DNA of 62,768 nt, the filler included, from Globobulimina sp. (Eukaryota): the NCBI GenBank assembly GCA_003354225.1. It is 22 parts of 22 records of this genome, joined end to end, with 100 filler letters (N's around TTAATTAATTAA, not from the genome) between each part and the next. Parts side by side here need not be neighbours in the genome. Positions count along the whole stretch, not along the records: positions 14,296 to 17,054 come from PIVH01005022.1; 21 more parts are not named here. One strand, given 5' to 3'. Below, one piece after another: positions 1,070 to 39,918 of the stretch. The notes beneath the pieces were generated by a model. That model saw nothing but the letters and a program-made list of their open reading frames with translations. It had not been told where the DNA came from and did no database searches. The stretch's first letter is position 1, and each line of letters starts with the position of its first letter. The position numbers were made by a program, and so were the translations under genes.

Positions 1070-1185
1070 CACCCTTGAAGGCAAATAGGCAATGGGTAAT
1101 GGGTAATATATGTGGATTACTTTTGTGCCGTTTCGAGTGAAAAAATAACTGCAAAAAACAGTTACTCCTAAATATACAGTATACA

Positions 1186-2565
1186 ATGGGTAATTTACTA
1201 GCGAAAAAAGTCGTGTGTTCTAACGTAGCACTTACACAGCATATCAGTAATGTGCGTGAATTGGATGATTTATTGACAGAAAAGATCAAGAAAAGTAAAT
1301 ACCCCATACCTGGATTGTCATTGTCATATATTAGCAAAGATCAAGGCTGTTATTATTATAATTTCGGTGTACAAGACATTGAAACCAATCAAGCAATAAC
1401 AGCGAAATCAATTTATCATTTATTTGATGGAACTCATTTATTCACAGCAACTGCCATCATGCAATTGTTTGAAAATAATCGATTAAATTTGACAGATCCC
1501 ATTGCTAATTATTTGACACAAGATTACTTTGTAAATTTTACCAAAACCCTTAAAACCAGAGACTTTTTGTTAAATGATATTAGTATTCAAAATTTATTGA
1601 CACATTCAACACTTTTACCGGATAATAAGACTGGATACAATGCATTGCATTTGCCACAATCTAAGGAATTATATGCGGATCATACTGATATTGATATTGA
1701 TATCGATAATAATGATGATATCGACTGGACATTTAATACATTGAATGCATTAAAAAAATACGGAAAATTTGAAATTAGGAAAGTGCGAAAAAATCTATAT
1801 TGCAAATATAATAATTTTGGCTATGCAATGTTAGGAGAAATAATACATAATGCAAATGAAAAGGATTTGGACTATCAACAATATATAAAAGAAAGTATTT
1901 TTTCTCCCTTAAATATGAAAACAACTGATTTTGGTTATAATAAATATGAAAATGCGAATTATGCGCAGGCAAATGGTAATATTTCGTGTGGATATATTCA
2001 TAGATTTGGTTTATTTGTACCAACATTGCGATATTATTGTGGCAAAAATAAATATAAACAATTGATTAGACACAAACAAAAGCGATTAATTGGATTGAAT
2101 GAGTTTGAAATGGATTCGCTATCAAATAATGGCATTATTGGCAACATTGAGGAATTTTCGTCATTTTTGTTGTCTCATTTACATGGAAATGTTTTGAATG
2201 AGACAAGTTTGTCAATGATGCAAGACAACCAATTATACGGTGGAATTGGTGTTGAATCAAAATATGCGCAGGGATATGGCTGGAAAATTGGAATAATGAA
2301 TGAAAATAACGATGACAATGTAATAAGATTCCTAAATAACGAAGGTTATGGACCTGGATTTACAACGGAAATGCGAATATATCCAGATGATGATTGTGCA
2401 ATTATTGTATGTTGTAATTACGCACCATCCACAAAAAAGGGCATTTTTAAATTTATGCACCAATTAATTCATACGGTATTTAAATGTATGGATGTGATCG
2501 AATTAGAACTCGAAACAAGAAATGTTTCATCCAAAGTTAAATGTGACAATAACAAAATAGAGTGA
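1186..2565 (+). CDS. Beta-lactamase/serine hydrolase-fold protein, probably lacking the canonical catalytic Ser
   Basis: Family motifs IPGLS, FTATAIMQL..L.LTDPI..YL, LLTHS, YNNFGYAMLGEII, IFSPLNMKTT, GYGW, G.GPGFTT. The SxxK position reads DGTH. MG start suggests myristoylation. Confidence 0.85.
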   Translation: MGNLLAKKVVCSNVALTQHISNVRELDDLLTEKIKKSKYPIPGLSLSYISKDQGCYYYNFGVQDIETNQAITAKSIYHLFDGTHLFTATAIMQLFENNRLNLTDPIANYLTQDYFVNFTKTLKTRDFLLNDISIQNLLTHSTLLPDNKTGYNALHLPQSKELYADHTDIDIDIDNNDDIDWTFNTLNALKKYGKFEIRKVRKNLYCKYNNFGYAMLGEIIHNANEKDLDYQQYIKESIFSPLNMKTTDFGYNKYENANYAQANGNISCGYIHRFGLFVPTLRYYCGKNKYKQLIRHKQKRLIGLNEFEMDSLSNNGIIGNIEEFSSFLLSHLHGNVLNETSLSMMQDNQLYGGIGVESKYAQGYGWKIGIMNENNDDNVIRFLNNEGYGPGFTTEMRIYPDDDCAIIVCCNYAPSTKKGIFKFMHQLIHTVFKCMDVIELELETRNVSSKVKCDNNKIE

Positions 2566-12255: not shown

Positions 12256-14195
12256 ATGAATAATAAATCAAACAGATCATTATCAATCACCGACATTCAA
12301 CAAATTGCTAATAATCTTAATATTGATCGTATTCAATTAATCAATCGTTTGAAACTTTGCAGTTTGAAGTTGGGTAAAAATATATATTGCGTTCGAATTC
12401 CATGCATACACAATTGCAATAAATAAATAATGAATAATACAGCTCATTTACGGTAAGTCAATTAAAAGAACTTATTAAGTGGTTCCGGCAAAATAAGAAC
12501 AGTAATAATTTACAGTTAAAACATACAGGTGAGGTATTTGTTTATTTTTTATTTTTTATGCATTATTTTTTATTCGTCTGATTTTTTGTTGCTGTCGGCT
12601 TTTGCCTCTGTATCAAATAAAAAATTTATTTGTACCTCTGCGTTTTTGCGGATTAAAAGGTCGAAAATCTGAATTGATTCAAACTGTCAAACGTGTCATT
12701 CAATTGTTTGATTTTTCAATGTATAATAATAATAATCAAACGCAACAATATACACATCCTACAATTTCTTACCAACAACAACAACAACAGCAACAACAAC
12801 AATATTATCAACAACAACAACGGCAACAACAATTATATGCACAAACACCTTCAAATACGTTATTTAATGCAACAAAGTTACGTTTTGTTTGTTTTTGTGA
12901 TGTTTTGATTGTATACATAATATAATACATTATGTTTTTTGTTTAGTGGTACTGGTACTGCTTCAAACTATGCTTGGAATGGTTCGTACCAAAATAATCC
13001 ACAACAACAACAGCAACAAATTGCATTCCAACAGCAACAACAACAACAAATATCGCAACAGACCCAATATAATGTGACAACGCAACATTATTCGCAATTG
13101 GTGCAACATCCAAATTTTACAAATAATCGTTCACCATTTTTTCAAGTTGAAAAGCGATGCTGCGTAATGCCCGTATTTAGTCAAAAAAGAATCCAATTTC
13201 GAATATCATTGCATAGCGACGATGTCAGCAATTTGCGCCGAAACAGCAAAGGAAGCAAAGGAACCGAAGCAACCAAAGGATCGATAGGCAGTGTGGACGA
13301 AGGACTGCATTTGCGATTATTTAATTTTGTGACGCATCAACATCAGGAATGGAACACGTCGCAATGTGATGTCTCTATCAATAATCGCAAAATAATAATT
13401 GATAAGAGATCGACCCGTAGCGGTGTAAAAAAAAAAGGATATCCTATCGTATCACCGTTAGATATCACCAAAGAGGCCTGCATTACAATGGATTTTGAGA
13501 TAACATCGAATGGACCCTTTGGTGGTGTGGCTGTAATAGAAATTGTGCGCATTTTTAGTGTGGAAAGTATAGCGTCGCGCATCACATTACGTTGTCGACC
13601 GATTGATTTCAAGAAGGACAAGAAATGCGCGATCTGCAATAAGAAGAACGACTTATTGCGGTGCAGTCGATGCAAATGTGTGTGGTATTGCGGCACCAAA
13701 CACCAAGCAAAGGATTGGCCCGCACACCAAACCCTGTGTTCCCCCAACGAGTCCAAAGGCAAATTGAAGTCGATCTCCTTTAAGCAGTCCGACGACGACG
13801 ACGTAGTCTGCGGACAAACAAAAGTGTCGTTGCGTTGTCCATTATCAATTTGCAGAATCAATGAACCGATTCGTGGCACAGAATGCACCCATCCACAATG
13901 CATCGATTTGAAAACATTTCTATCCTTTTCACACAAAACGGGCACATGGCAATGTCCGGTGTGCCTAAAACCGCTTAAATTCGATGAGATTGTGATTGAT
14001 AATGAGATGAAAGAGATTCTGTCTCAAACGGATGAGGACATTGATTTGGTTCGTCTGTATCCGAATGGCTCCTTTAAAGCCATTACTTTGCAGGAACAGC
14101 TGCAAGAGGAACGCATGCAAAATACAAAAAGAAAACGGAAGAGGAAAAAGGATGATATGGAAGATAATATTTTACAGGTAGGTCTGGATGAGCGA
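12256..14195 (+). CDS. SIZ/PIAS-type SUMO E3 ligase: SAP-like, Q-rich, PINIT-like, MYND finger, SP-RING; 3'-partial
   Basis: Introns 12369-12442, 12529-12659 and 12877-12946 give TVSQLKELIK...LKHTGRKSELIQ (SAP-like). MYND: CAIC...RCSRCKCVWYCGTKHQAKDWPAHQTLC. SP-RING: VSLRCPLS..RI..PIRG..CTHPQCID...WQCPVC. Confidence 0.88.
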
Positions 14196-14308
14196 NNNNN
14201 NNNNNNNNNNNNNNNNNNNNNNNNNNNNNNNNNNNNNNNTTAATTAATTAANNNNNNNNNNNNNNNNNNNNNNNNNNNNNNNNNNNNNNNNNNNNGTAAA
14301 AATCATAC

Positions 14309-14429
14309 CAACGCATAACGGCCCGTCTACAATTAATCTTCTTTTCTCGTTAATTGGAAATGATTCTGGCAGTTTGAGTTGTTTCTTCCAATTGGTTTTG
14401 GATTTGGCAGTTTGAGTCATCGACATCAT
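14309..14429 (-). CDS. First exon of a paralogue of the PH-ankyrin-FYVE gene at 37924
   Basis: KQLKLPESFPINEKRRLIVDGPLCV aligns with KLQKLPKHWPENENRVLIREGVLFI (37924 gene), with a phase-1 GT donor at the same position. Confidence 0.7.
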
Positions 14430-14716
14430 CGAGATATCCGCAGTTGTAACTAAAGATAAAGTATACACAAGAAATACGTTTTAAATCTCCATTTTAAAGT
14501 CTACGTACTTTTTTTAGTCAAACAATATCGGATTTAATACACAAACCGTTTGGGTTTTAATTTAAAAGAAATTGGTGGGTTTTTTTTATGTAATGGATGA
14601 GTGAACTACACGTAGAAGACGCCACAAAACGATAAAATCAATCAAAAAATGGGGGAATCAATTCAACCCCAACTGTATAATAAAATATATATATATATTT
14701 AAACAAATATTTTTAT

Positions 14717-16850
14717 TTATTTTTTCTTTGAAAATGTTGTAACCATTTTATGATAATGTTCAGCTTGTCTTTTATTCATATTATATATCTCAATTTCACC
14801 ATTTTTAAAATATATTTTAAATCCTCTTTTTCGCTCAGTATGAATAGCAGATACTTTCTTAATTTGCTCTCTATTTACAACAAACCAGTCCTCCCATTTA
14901 TGTCCATTTAACTTCGTAAAAATAATTGTTTTGCAAATCTTTATTCTTCCGACCATATCGTTCTTATCTCCTTTTAAATGCATTGTCAACTTATCAGTGC
15001 CAGCCCGTGTATTCCGTGACGATATGTTACTATTTTTAGCAAATACTAACTTATCCATTTTAGGATCACCTTCTTTCCACGCAATTTGTTTATTGTTACT
15101 CATATCTTTTAAATCCTGACCAATGTTAATGGCAACATCTGTTAATGTCAACGTGTTATTTTTATTGTTATCTCTAAACTGATCAATTAAACATTGACTG
15201 AAAAAGCCGCCATCTTTGCTTTCTGACACCTCAATCCCTGGACAATTACCATAGAGACTGCAAACAAGATCCATTTTATGTCGACCTAAGGCGTTGCCTC
15301 GATCACGATCCGTATTCACAACGGAGTCATCCCTGCAACAGTCGAATATGAATAAGCGTGGAATCTTAGCAATGGATCGTCTCCATCCACTGTCTACCTT
15401 TGCGTGCAACTCTTTTATTTGCACACTTTTTGCGTTTTTATCTGCGTCGTAATCACTGGGATATATAACCCCATTGCCGCCATGTCCGGAGATAACAACA
15501 ATTAATGATTCATAAATAATTTGACTTTTGTTATATTTACTGCTTAATAACAGTCTGCCTTCTTCCATAAATTTAATTAAATCTTCGTCAGTCCATCGTT
15601 TTTTGCCATACCATTGTTTATCATTTGCTGATGGATATACATCATATTCATATTCGTCATTCCTGTAATTATAAATAAAATAAGTACGTGATCATGATAC
15701 GGCAAAAATTGTCAGAGTCATATATGGTTTGCCAAAAACGTTTCTGTCTAAGTTTGTCAATCATATTCAAGTAATTGATACAAAATATATGACTCTGGAG
15801 ATTTTTGCCATATTTGTATAGATACCATAATTGTCTGTAATTTCTAATGTCATGTGGTACACCCGGCAAATTTTGAAGTTTATCATATTTTGATATGCCA
15901 ATTAGTAATACCAATACATTTGAAACAGAGTTAGCATCGCTATCACATAGATCATATACAGCTGAATATTATATATATATTAATATGATACAATCAATGC
16001 AATGTACACAGACATACCATCATCATCATCAGCTTTGGTATCATCATCATCAGCTTTGGTACGATTATCAACAAAGTTTTGACATACATCAGCATCATAT
16101 GATCCTTTTTCCGCTGTTCCCATTACAATTTTTCTATAATATTCATTTGGAATGCTTTTATTAAAACATTTATCACACGAACGCTTCGACGAACTCTTAA
16201 ATTTTAATTTTCGAGACGAACATTTTTGACAAATTAAATAACCGCATTTTCGACAATGATGTCTTCTCCGCCAGAAAGTAAATGAAATGCCACATTGTAG
16301 GCATAAATCGGATGTTTTATCATCGATCCATAATTTATTTGATTTATCAATGGCAACATCAGGCTGTAACCCACAATTTATTTTTTTAGTTGCTTTGAAT
16401 AATGCAATATATTCATTTAAATCTTTATGCCATATATTTTTACATATTTTATCTGTTATATCCAATCGTGCACCGTAAGCAACTAACCATCGAGCTATAT
16501 TTATCTATATACACATAAGTATTAAGTATTTGATATATAATATACGTAAATATATGCAAATATAACCTGTTCTTTGTGGGTAATAAGGTGTAATGGTCTT
16601 TTTTTATTATAGCCTTCCGTATTTGGAGAGGCACCATTTTGTAACAATAACATTACACATTGTTCATCACTATTTTTGCAAGCAATGTGCAGCGCTGTTT
16701 CGCCATCGTTACTTTTCGAATCCATATTAAATGTTTCTTCTTTTTCTTCTCCTTTAATATAATTTACATCAATTTTATGCAGACATAATTTGACCATATC
16801 GGCTTGTTTTCTGTCACAGGCAATATGTAATACATTCCGTCCATTATCAC
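14717..16850 (-). CDS. Ankyrin repeats + FYVE finger + peptidase C14 (caspase-like) domain + C-terminal PH-like domain; 5'-partial
   Basis: Introns 16505-16566, 15962-16017 and 15663-15825 join four ORFs in frame. ANK: GETALHIAC. FYVE: WIDD..C..C..F.FWRRRHHCRKCG..C..C...CDKC. C14: VLLIGISKY...LPGV..D, ISGHG, PRLFIFDCCR, GGFF. Confidence 0.85.
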
Positions 16851-16952
16851 GATAGTTATGGCCATAATTTATTACATATTGCAGCTTTTGTTAACAACAC
16901 AGCGTTTATTGAAGATTATGGCTCGCAATTTAATATAAGTGATTCTGATGAT
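16851..16952 (+). other. Inverted ankyrin-repeat fragment from the same gene family (probable amplification inversion chimera)
   Basis: Plus strand reads DSYGHNLLHIAAFVNNTAFIEDYGSQFNI, matching GGHNLLHLACAVNNVDFIEDYGNKFDI in the 37924 gene, while the adjacent gene is on the minus strand. Confidence 0.85.
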
Positions 16953-17292
16953 CGTATAGCCACGCATAGTACCCAAGCAGGAGTTAACAGCGAACGGTAG
17001 TGATCTGCACTGACCAACGCCTTGGCCGTTCGAGTATAAGCCAGAGTACGTCATNNNNNNNNNNNNNNNNNNNNNNNNNNNNNNNNNNNNNNNNNNNNTT
17101 AATTAATTAANNNNNNNNNNNNNNNNNNNNNNNNNNNNNNNNNNNNNNNNNNNNAAATACGATTTTTATAGACTCATACACGAAGAGCGCATCTGTTCAG
17201 AATACTATTTATTGTTAAGAATATTTTAGTTCAATATGGCTTTAATGCAGAACATAACATAACAGTTTATAAAGTGGCAAAAATAAAAATAT

Positions 17293-37923: not shown

Positions 37924-39918
37924 ATGTCAAAAGCCAAAGCGCTGGAACTCAAACCAAAACTGCAAAAGTTACCCAAACATTGGCCAGAAAATGAGAATCG
38001 AGTGTTAATTCGAGAAGGCGTATTATTCATTGGTTAAGCACCCCATATTTGTCTCACCCAAAAAAGCAAACTCAAAAATATTTTGCATTTAGAAGAAGAA
38101 AGTAAAGTGAAGCCTCGCTGGTGCTTTTTATTCAATGATTGTTTCTTAGAATGTAAGCCGGCTTGCGATTTTGCGGAGAATAATACCCGTTTACAAGACC
38201 CCAGCACGCCATTTCGCTTTAAAAATTACATGTTGCTCAACACCTGCTACCTCGACGAAAACCCCTCCACCATAAAAAAGCAAGTGCACAAACTCGAGCA
38301 GCACAAAACCTCTCCCTTTGTACTGATTGGGCATAATTTAGAGGAGAAAATCAGAAATAAAAAGAGCGAAATAAGTTTAATATATTCCTCCTCCGACATC
38401 AATGACCTTACCTTATGGTGCAGCGACATCCATAGTAGCATCTGCAACAGATATCTCTCCATCAACAACGACTTAATGAATTATGGCTGGCAGAACCAAT
38501 ACAGAAAAGGCACCGTTTTCCATGCCGTCTACACTTTACACAACGAGTTAGTGAAACAAATCGGCGTTGACGCCGACATCAAAGACATTGGCGGCCATAA
38601 TTTATTGCACTTAGCGTGTGCCGTAAACAACGTTGACTTCATTGAAGATTATGGCAACAAATTTGACATCGACGCTGTAGATTGCAATGGTTGGAGCGGT
38701 CTACGCATCGCTTCCGACAACGATAACATAGAAAGTGTGCGCGTTTTATGTGACACTTTGTATCCCAATTTAGATGAATATTACCCAGCGGATAAGTCCA
38801 TCAATCCCTACACTCACAAACAGAACGAACACGACACGAACAGATACGAGTTGGATGACCGTACCATATTACATGAATTGTGCAGTCGTGGACAGTCCGA
38901 GTTAGTCTCCATAGTATTAGACACCCAATCCATTAATATGGAAGCTTTGGATGTCAATGGGGCCACACCGTTGCACATCGCAGCGAAAAAAAACGAGGAA
39001 GCTTGCATTCTATTATTATTACAGAATGGCGCACCTCCGAATTTAGCTGATTTTAAAGGCAATCGCACATTGCATAACACGACGAAAGAAATGTGTGCGC
39101 GTTGGTTGATTGCGTACGGTGCGCGCTTGGAATTGTGCAATAAATGGAAGAAATCGTGTGCTGATGCGTGGGGCAATAAGTTGGATAAATATGTGCCTTT
39201 GCTGCAGCATGTGACTGCCACGGATTGTCGCATTCAGGATAACATCGCGGAGAATACTGCTTGGTTTGATGATAAGTTGTCCAATGCGTGTTTGTTGTGT
39301 GGCAATTTGTTTACTATTTGGAGCAGACGGCATCATTGCCGCGCTTGTGGCTTACTGATATGTCAATCGTGCAGTTTGCGGAAGTTGCAGTTTAACAAAG
39401 ATGGGAAACCAACGTTGGAGCGAGCGTGCGATAAATGCTTCAATAAGAACCATAGCAAGTTATTGCGGGAAAAGAAGTATGTGTTTCGAGGCAAATTGTA
39501 TCATATGAAAGCAAGGGATTTTTATAAAATGTGTGTGATGGAGACCAGTATGAAGGGCTCGTATCATATATGGATCAAATCGTTGGAGGAGAAGGAGGAG
39601 AATAATGATTTGTTGATGGTTGGTCTGGATGGAGATGATGAGAAAAAGGAGAATGTAAATGCTGCGTTGCTGAATAGTAAAAGTAAAAGTAGCCCGGGTG
39701 GGGAGGGTGAGGCTGTGGATAAGAAAGGACATCATCAGTTTAGTGCGTCTGTGGGGATCCCGAGTCTGTTTAATCGGAATAAGAAGAAAGATGAAGAGAG
39801 GTATATAAAGCATCAAAGTGCGCAGTCGCAAGCCATGAATCAGACGCAGGAGGCATTGAATAAAGTGCATGAAAGGGCGCAGAAATTGTCTCAGTTGGCG
39901 GATAAATCCGATCAAATG
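37924..39918 (+). CDS. PH + ankyrin repeats + FYVE + C-terminal R-SNARE (tomosyn/synaptobrevin-like) motif; 3'-partial
   Basis: Intron 38033-38092; RVLIREG...RWCFLFND (PH); GATPLHIAA (ANK); WFDD..C..C..F....RRHHCRACG (FYVE); MNQTQEALNKVHERAQKLSQLADKSDQM (R-SNARE). Confidence 0.88.

Follow-up and report, generated by a model that had tools for sequence, protein, structure and literature searches.

A spliced ankyrin-FYVE gene joined to a caspase-like protease domain in Globobulimina, and a scaffold paralogue that runs into an R-SNARE helix

The window analysed here is a 62,768-base stretch of DNA from Globobulimina sp. (assembly GCA_003354225.1), and its main subject is a gene, referred to below as gene 1, in which ankyrin repeats and a FYVE finger are joined to a Peptidase_C14 (caspase-type) domain. 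Gene 1 lies on the minus strand of a contig of 2,759 bases (PIVH01005022.1, positions 14296-17054 of the window). The window itself consists of 22 unlinked contigs of ~2.76 kb each (about 2,756-2,759 bases), apparently ordered by size, with 42 runs of 44 N at the contig joints, paired around TTAATTAATTAA (N44-TTAATTAATTAA-N44 linkers). Because the window is a concatenation, the adjacency of its pieces is meaningless, and gene 1 is not linked to its paralogue, which shares the ankyrin-FYVE scaffold and sits on a separate contig (37161-39918). A preliminary description of this DNA had already compared the two genes. Five public sequencing runs of unrecorded library kind match part of the gene 1 contig, and four of these (X1-X4) were aligned to it. 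The parts of gene 1, with positions counted along the window, are as follows.

16567-16846, minus strand: exon A, ankyrin repeats (Pfam Ank, E 3.1e-16; 42% identity to the paralogue), covered by X2 record 13
16505-16566, minus strand: intron 1, 62 nucleotides (nt), GT..AG, phase 0, GC 0.18; joint 16504/16567 found in X2 record 13
16018-16504, minus strand: exon B, encoding the conserved ARWL.AYGARL linker, a FYVE finger (about 16157-16330), KGSY and an acidic linker made of repeats; 44% identical to the paralogue
15962-16017, minus strand: intron 2, 56 nt, GT..AG, phase 1, between the FYVE exon and the C14 exon; joint 15961/16018 found in X2 record 12, with 137 letters on the shorter side
15826-15961, minus strand: exon C, which completes the linker and opens the C14 domain (first strand and helix, from about 15917)
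15663-15825, minus strand: intron 3, 163 nt, GT..AG, phase 2; joint 15661/15825 (cut +1) found in X2 record 12 and X3 record 15
15026-15662, minus strand: exon D, first part, the remaining C14 domain (Pfam Peptidase_C14, E 7.7e-11)
15484-15482, 15343-15341 and 15337-15335, minus strand: the catalytic-site codons of exon D for His, Asp and Cys, respectively
14720-14998, minus strand: exon D, last part, the C-terminal PH-like domain; stop codon 14719-14717

Once spliced, the four exons (A-D) form a single frame of 615 codons with zero internal stops, and the encoded order is ankyrin repeats, FYVE finger, acidic linker, Peptidase_C14 and a C-terminal PH-like domain. The introns have a GC content of 0.18-0.29 versus 0.31-0.34 for the exons, and all three intron joints are found in public contigs, with CT..AC ends on the plus strand. 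X2 record 12 (982 nt) covers 16329-16018, 15961-15825 and 15661-15129 with two other letters per piece; it thereby joins the FYVE exon to the C14 exon, with at least 137 letters on either side of the bridge. X2 record 13 (485 nt) covers 16846-16567 and 16504-16308 with intron 1 removed, and intron 3 is absent from X3 record 15. Run X2 belongs to a different study from X1 and is labelled with a different organism. The contigs of X1 are colinear with the genome and unspliced, record 5 (15137-15889) passing through intron 3 and record 7 (16039-16618) through intron 1. The simplest reading is that the intron-less X2 and X3 contigs are RNA-derived and that the FYVE and protease exons are joined in transcripts; this RNA origin is suggested because exactly the predicted introns are missing, and not by library labels. 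A further joint in X1 (14778/16039, skipping 1,260 bases) was rejected as spurious, having TA..GG ends and 24 letters on its shorter side. Exon C alone (52 residues) matched no Pfam family. It does align with the start of the C14 domain in two relatives, P0001 and P0006, and the alignment runs on across the C/D joint; since the domain is uninterrupted in both proteins, this provides independent support for the splice. We are therefore highly confident that gene 1 is a real, spliced and fused gene. The preliminary description had read three GT-AG introns and one frame here, and had pointed to 15900-16150 as the critical junction and to Ank, FYVE and Peptidase_C14 as the expected Pfam families; the public joints, the record that crosses the junction with intron 2 removed and the Pfam matches in the exons are all in agreement with it. 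Directly before the donor of exon B, the acidic linker contains a tandem seven-residue repeat (16021-16060, minus strand) in two copies, each ending in DDDD, which could be a processing site or a mere flexible spacer.

Assembly has gone wrong at the right end of the contig, where the preliminary description had already reported an inversion artefact. The segment concerned is:

16848-16950, plus strand: inverted ankyrin segment of gene 1, an upstream coding part; public contigs follow the plus strand and then the minus strand at 16846

An opposite-strand joint (16846/16950) occurs in X1, and X4 record 23 reads 16848-16950 on the plus strand before continuing on the minus strand from 16846. When re-oriented, this segment encodes one more ankyrin repeat, which keeps the frame of exon A, and its translation matches the ankyrin region of the paralogue. 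In the contig, the two homologous repeat segments stand face to face as a 25-nt inverted repeat (16820-16844 and 16858-16882). Over the last 88 bases (16967-17054), word depth ranges from 72 to about 2,660 in the four runs, and the sequence matches long high-copy contigs, one of them a 1,617-nt record with a depth of about 1,050; this stretch is probably repeat or organelle-like sequence attached by misassembly. Together, the high-copy end and the opposite-strand joint indicate that this end of the contig is wrongly assembled and that the true 5' part of gene 1 is missing. The misassembly is ~900 bases away from the FYVE-C14 junction, which is untouched by it.

Peptidase_C14 (PF00656) matches residues 63-206 of exon D at 42.5 bits against a cut-off of 21.4. 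A comparison of exon D with PDB sequences gave 51 matches at E up to 1 (best E 1.6e-3), comprising 45 to caspase-3, 5 to caspase-2 forms and 1 that is unrelated, and there was no metacaspase among the 51. In the caspase-3 alignment, SGHG is paired with SHG, FDCCRD with QACRG and GGFFSQ with GSWFIQ, such that the His-Cys dyad which the preliminary description had called intact (SGHG, FDCCR) aligns with its caspase-3 counterpart. Asp107 of the C14 domain falls opposite the Gln of caspase-3 QACRG, which is part of the S1 pocket. Across the family alignment (A1; counts at each column include only rows with a residue there), the His is kept in 23/24 rows, as are the catalytic Cys and Arg110 (23/24 each), and the motif reads DCCRG or DACRG. 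The C14 domain was also modelled with AlphaFold2 from a 25-row alignment, the first strand (exon C) being outside the model. The predicted local distance difference test (pLDDT) score exceeds 90 over most of residues 11-210, and a low-confidence loop containing Arg/Lys and Asp lies between the two halves of the domain; this loop and the Asp-rich linker are candidate maturation sites. The best Foldseek rows for the model were caspase-3, -8 and -7 and CED-3, at about E 1e-8. A VIA structural search returned Z scores of 17.5-18.2 to caspases (caspase-3, -8 and -9 groups) over 172-180 aligned residues, followed by caspase-4 (15.3), MALT1 (15.2), c-FLIP and CED-3 (both 14.9) and the metacaspases AtMC4 (14.4), AtMC9 (13.8), Yca1 (10.5) and TbMCA2 (8.5). 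We also considered gene 1 as a metacaspase, an assignment that is disfavoured by fold scores of 8.5-14.4 versus 17.5-18.2 for the caspases.

At the positions that set specificity a different likeness appears. According to McLuskey and Mottram (PMC4357240), a P1 Asp is bound in caspase-7 by Arg87, Gln184 and Arg233 on L1, L4 and L5, respectively, MALT1 has Asp365, Asp462 and Glu500 at similar places, and TbMCA2 has Asp211. The basic S1 pocket of Asp-specific caspases (C14A) was not found in gene 1: the L4 position, Asp107, two before the catalytic Cys, is Asp in 24/24 rows of A1, and L5 has Ser/Glu and not Arg. L5 is acidic in 16/23 rows (Glu147 in 14, Asp in 2), and an Asp at the helix-1/L1 position in exon C was read by eye only. 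As judged from the alignments and the predicted model, then, the domain is caspase-like by fold and nearest sequence and paracaspase-like at the alignable specificity positions. The preliminary description had taken the Asp before the Cys as a trait of Arg/Lys-specific meta- and paracaspases; this fits PMC4357240, although the fold is nearer to caspases than to metacaspases. An S1 Asp (L4) together with a Glu (L5), as in MALT1, leads to a prediction of cleavage after Arg or Lys and not after Asp, and we lean slightly towards such a basic P1 specificity. It is fairly likely that gene 1 encodes an active protease.

A FYVE finger is defined by eight zinc-binding Cys residues and by the WxxD, R(R/K)HHCR and RVC motifs. 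Exon B matches FYVE (PF01363) at 60.2 bits (E 2.1e-16; cut-off 27.8) and has WIDD, RRHHCR and four CxxC pairs. By analogy with other FYVE fingers, targeting of the gene 1 protein to membranes containing phosphatidylinositol 3-phosphate (PI3P) is predicted, and we regard this as probable. At the other end of the protein, the tail matched no Pfam family at E up to 0.01 apart from a sub-threshold match at chance level. Its last ~93 residues are kept in two other proteins, P0025 and P0043, at 32-33% identity. Folded alone from a 3-row alignment, the tail was modelled as seven strands and a C-terminal helix (96-111), with pLDDT 80-89 over residues 21-113; within a model of the whole of exon D it was poorly resolved (pLDDT 40-62). 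Every top Foldseek row for the tail-only model was PH or PH-like (E 2e-3 to 1.4e-2, template-modelling score 0.47-0.66), and all 50 rows listed by VIA were of the PH superfold (PH, PTB, FERM-F3 and myotubularin PH-GRAM; Z 9.7-11.8). Feature neighbours in the ESM Atlas were PH, GRAM and bacterial-PH clusters at 0.91-0.93, which we treat as a lead only. The predicted structure thus supports a PH-like fold for the tail, as the preliminary description had proposed.

The paralogue is laid out as follows.

37924-38032, plus strand: exon 1, from a reading of the sequence; matches the N-termini of P0113 and P0117
38033-38092, plus strand: intron, 60 nt, GT..AG
38093-39918, plus strand: exon 2, encoding PH and ankyrin repeats, a FYVE finger (about 39262-39447) and the beginning of an R-SNARE motif (39808-39918); ends at the contig edge

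Gene 1 and the paralogue match with 40% identity over 253 residues (tblastn, E 4e-50). In alignment A3 the two are colinear through the ankyrin repeats, ARWL.AYGARL, FYVE and KGSY and then diverge, exactly as the preliminary description had it; gene 1 continues into C14 where the scaffold family has its R-SNARE motif, and it lacks ~20 residues after the FYVE finger relative to that family. The domains of exon 2 were assigned by Pfam, and it has relatives at 58-72% identity, some of them with Synaptobrevin (PF00957). The R-SNARE end that had been attributed to the paralogue is made probable by these relatives more than by the window copy itself, for which PF00957 gives a weak 12.9 bits (E 0.098) and the edge of the contig truncates the match at profile position 43. 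Against a cut-off of 26.4 bits, PF00957 scores 37.2 in P0113, 31.5 in P0117, 35.1 in P0116, 32.1 in P0141 and 26.2 in P0121; the group at 31.5-37.2 bits has 47-63% identity, with P0141 and P0121 more distant. PF00957 was present in 8 of the 71 scaffold relatives. The matches end at profile position 60-62 of 89, with the proteins finishing a few residues later, and no 19-residue hydrophobic window reaches 1.8 in P0113, P0117, P0121 or P0141. These two observations define a family of PH-ankyrin-FYVE-R-SNARE proteins without a membrane anchor, of which we found no description in the literature. By analogy with amisyn, discussed below, the family may act as an endosomal brake on fusion. Its conservation extends from foraminifera to organisms further away (23-29% identity). 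Where relatives of the two genes carry species names, these are foraminiferan (Bolivina argentea, Nonionella stella and Elphidium margaritaceum). One scaffold-family member from outside the window, P0120 (606 residues, from a 2,759-base Logan contig), has a SNARE-like end with Asn in place of the central Arg and holds an AT-rich stretch that resembles a translated intron.

In a maximum-likelihood tree, the gene 1 scaffold falls on a long branch within a 12-row foraminiferal clade supported at 100/100; the tree is unrooted, and the support covers the membership of gene 1 in the clade and not its place within it. R-SNARE-bearing members occur both in the foraminiferal clade and in a distant clade (P0121 and P0141), which by parsimony makes the SNARE form the older and gene 1 the derived one.

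How unusual is this architecture? A HMMER search with exon D against 1.84 billion representative sequences returned 109 relatives at E up to 1e-3, the best at 45% identity. Pfam scans of all 109 (35 of them with a threshold of E 1e-3, the other 74 with E 1e-5) found neither Ank nor FYVE in any; conversely, PF00656 was found in none of the 71 scaffold relatives. The partners seen in the C14 relatives are SAM with or without C2H2, Kelch propellers, SPRY, astacin, PB1, CH plus MORN, and C-type lectin. Ten relatives carried names among the 20 looked up, and all ten are from foraminifera. P0006 is a stand-alone relative that begins at the C14 domain, and P0043 (Bolivina argentea, 1,139 residues) is receptor-like, having a signal-like start, a long Cys-rich repeat ectodomain and a single strong hydrophobic/transmembrane segment (about 732-755) followed by the C14 and PH-like module, a placement that fits membrane-proximal action. 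In a further protein search with exon D, from whose collection the gene 1 protein itself was absent, 0 of 1,723 longer candidates and 1 of 400 of similar length (P0001) passed. A search of metagenome contigs for FYVE exons upstream of C14 relatives gave 42 pattern matches for a single protein and 66 for alignment A4, with no relative among them. The ankyrin-FYVE-C14 architecture is undescribed in the literature searched, InterPro architecture tables and paper supplements being outside that search, and a survey of FYVE/PX domains (PMC2837644) contains zero mentions of caspase, synaptobrevin or ankyrin in the part that excludes its supplementary domain tables. The earlier remark that no protein of this architecture had been described is thus borne out within these searches.

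Downstream of gene 1, close to the other end of the same contig, lies the start of a further gene:

14309-14429, minus strand: first exon of the next gene, a scaffold-family member; intron from 14308 (GT); contig end at 14296

Its ATG is at 14429, 288 nt past the gene 1 stop on the same strand, and it shares 11/22 identities with exon 1 of the paralogue (E 4e-6). An X2 contig exits the window at 14308, and its loose letters, as read, run into the conserved PH-domain motif of the scaffold family. On this sequence, a second scaffold-family member follows gene 1 head-to-tail and is also spliced. The preliminary description had gone further and suggested a tandem array; the same-strand neighbour is there, but it is a single one and does not amount to an array.

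Other contigs of the window hold features of separate interest. A neighbouring contig has a 425-residue open frame (12921-14195, plus strand) that combines a MYND finger (E 4.4e-10) with a MIZ/SP-RING finger (E 4.2e-18), which reads as a PIAS-like SUMO-ligase core with an extra MYND finger. A 474-residue open frame at 1141-2562 (plus strand) belongs to the Beta-lactamase (serine hydrolase) Pfam family (E 3e-34). The contig at 25729-28486 has a GC content of 0.44 versus ~0.32 elsewhere and long intron-free frames, one of which matches T2SSE (type II/IV secretion ATPase; E 6e-24); it is probably a bacterial contig within the assembly.

The explanation that we favour overall, and with fair confidence, is that gene 1 is a spliced fusion which would place a caspase-type protease on PI3P membranes. 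A contrary account would make it an artefact, in which a truncated scaffold gene and a stand-alone caspase-like gene have been joined by misassembly or in read-through transcripts. Assembly did go wrong in the same contig, at 16846-16950 and in its chimeric, high-copy end, stand-alone relatives that start at C14 exist (P0006), and the joined form is supported at the level of contigs: the intron-less records are assembled and are not single molecules, their RNA origin is reached by inference, and a processed DNA copy is formally possible. On the other side, the FYVE-C14 junction is well removed from the misassembled end, records 5-7 of the genomic-type run X1 are colinear over it, and a record from another study removes the 56-nt GT..AG intron exactly and in frame. 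There is no stop codon in exon B, and exon C contains no in-frame Met ahead of the domain. Taken together, we consider an artefact very improbable.

Two other accounts accept the fusion and differ over what the protease domain does. It could be a true Asp-specific caspase of regulated cell death, in which the enzyme would mature itself at the Asp-rich linker and FYVE would do no more than keep the zymogen at membranes. The nearest sequences (50 of the 51 PDB matches) and the best folds are indeed Asp-specific caspases, the two DDDD runs directly before exon C would suit self-cleavage by an Asp-specific enzyme, and caspase-like proteins of the foraminiferan Reticulomyxa filosa group with animal caspases in the accessible parts of Klim et al. 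2018 (PMC5982838) and PMC10565124. The register of L5 is also ambiguous by one residue, HMMER pairing the caspase Arg with Ser146, next to Glu147. The substitution of Asp for the S1 Gln in every row of A1 and the mostly acidic L5 nevertheless form the basic-P1 pattern of MALT1, and such an acidic pocket should repel a P1 Asp; we think this account unlikely. Alternatively, the C14 and PH-like module could serve for binding or scaffolding without catalysis, like c-FLIP or like MALT1 when it acts as a scaffold, with proteolysis irrelevant. P0043 has Val for the catalytic Cys, which shows that the module can persist without catalysis, and the protease-like domain of c-FLIP matches the model (Z 14.9). 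Against this, the active-site His, Gly, Asp, Cys and Arg are intact in gene 1 and are kept in 23 or 24 of 24 rows, and a purely non-catalytic role seems to us quite unlikely.

Several further points weigh against a membrane-targeted protease of wider consequence. The 5' end of gene 1 is off the contig, its start codon and any N-terminal PH domain being unseen, and the third FYVE motif is RSC rather than RVC. No orthologue of the same architecture was found in other foraminifera among the relatives scanned, and gene 1 might be a recent fusion, or one confined to its lineage, that matters little. Finally, the scaffold is known with just two C-termini, C14 plus PH-like in one form and R-SNARE in the other. 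The preliminary description had spoken of a scaffold with swappable effectors; a shared ankyrin-FYVE scaffold with two C-termini is what we find, and 'swappable' says more than two variants can carry.

On the favoured explanation, the origin and action of gene 1 can be pictured as follows. A divergent copy of the PH-ankyrin-FYVE-R-SNARE scaffold has lost its SNARE helix, which was replaced by a two-domain module (C14 protease plus PH-like) also found in other foraminiferal proteins. FYVE, perhaps aided by the PH-like tail and by an unseen N-terminal PH domain, would bring the protein to PI3P-rich membranes of endosomes or phagosomes, where crowding would bring about pairing of the protease domains and so their activation, in the manner of initiator caspases and MALT1 on platforms, and the active enzyme would then cut local substrates after Arg or Lys. 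The membrane and proximity steps are drawn from the known behaviour of FYVE fingers, initiator caspases and MALT1, and activation by proximity is, on this analogy, tentative. A role at the phagosome in sensing prey or symbionts, which the preliminary description had raised, is a possible but speculative candidate.

Caspase-family proteases are controlled by protein platforms. In a broader reading, foraminifera would run an expanded caspase-type family with recruitment modules where animals use CARD/DED: FYVE/PI3P in gene 1, and SAM, PB1, Kelch, SPRY, C-type lectin or a transmembrane receptor-like ectodomain in its relatives. Gene 1 would be a lipid-gated member that is turned on when crowded together on PI3P-positive phagosomes or endosomes and that cuts after Arg/Lys, born by swapping a fusion-blocking R-SNARE helix for a protease. 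We hold this broader reading to be rather doubtful; if true, it would mean that caspase signalling activated on platforms was invented a second time, independently of animals, and tied to the identity of membranes. A caspase relative wired to a reader of phosphoinositides would connect protease signalling with the identity of organelles in giant phagotrophic, often symbiont-bearing cells, and would give the debate over the function of caspase-like proteins outside animals a concrete case to test. The gene pair shows a conserved endosomal scaffold turned, by exchange of a domain, from a SNARE regulator into a protease, and the apparently undescribed anchor-less PH-ankyrin-FYVE-R-SNARE family is itself of interest for the evolution of membrane traffic.

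The closest comparison for the N-terminal half of gene 1 is with the PH-ankyrin-FYVE-R-SNARE proteins (P0113, P0117, P0121 and P0141), with which it shares colinear ankyrin and FYVE exons and the foraminiferal clade; it differs in having C14 and a PH-like domain for the R-SNARE helix and in that an N-terminal PH domain is not seen. Weak matches among the scaffold relatives include two BTB+Ank+FYVE proteins, P0136 and P0147, whose architecture we take to be that of Rabankyrin-5/ANKFY1, with an endosomal role. Proteins of this type (BTB-ankyrin-FYVE) likewise have ankyrin repeats followed by a FYVE on the C-terminal side, whereas gene 1 has no BTB, its FYVE is not terminal and a protease is attached. 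For the paralogue, PMC10670990 describes amisyn/STXBP6 as a PH domain with an anchor-less C-terminal R-SNARE-like coiled coil that forms non-fusogenic SNARE complexes and restrains fusion. The complete relatives of the paralogue are likewise without a hydrophobic anchor, while the foraminiferal family adds ankyrin repeats and FYVE; the likeness is one of architecture.

The Reticulomyxa caspase-like proteins have the same kind of C14 domain and come from the same phylum, and the accessible parts of PMC5982838 and PMC10565124 make no mention of domain architectures, an ankyrin-FYVE fusion or a PH-like tail. The animal caspases (caspase-3, -8 and -9 and CED-3; MEROPS C14A) provide the best sequence and fold matches, with an SHG-type His, a D[CA]CRG motif that parallels QACRG and a GSWF-like small-subunit motif in gene 1. 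Unlike them, gene 1 has Asp for the S1 Gln and Ser/Glu at the L5 Arg position, and in place of CARD/DED it has ankyrin repeats and FYVE at the N-terminal side, with a PH-like domain after the protease. MALT1 resembles gene 1 in its caspase-like fold, in the acidic residue two before the catalytic Cys, probably in its acidic L5 (given the one-residue ambiguity of register) and in the tying of a protease to non-catalytic recruitment domains, and it is activated by oligomerisation on a platform. Gene 1 departs from MALT1 in having no death or Ig-like domains (Pfam matched only Ank, FYVE and Peptidase_C14 in the four exons), in scoring lower by fold to MALT1 than to caspases and in its FYVE, since lipid targeting of this kind is not a MALT1 feature. 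Set beside these systems, gene 1 is a new domain architecture made from known parts, in a poorly studied phylum and with a plausible predicted mechanism.

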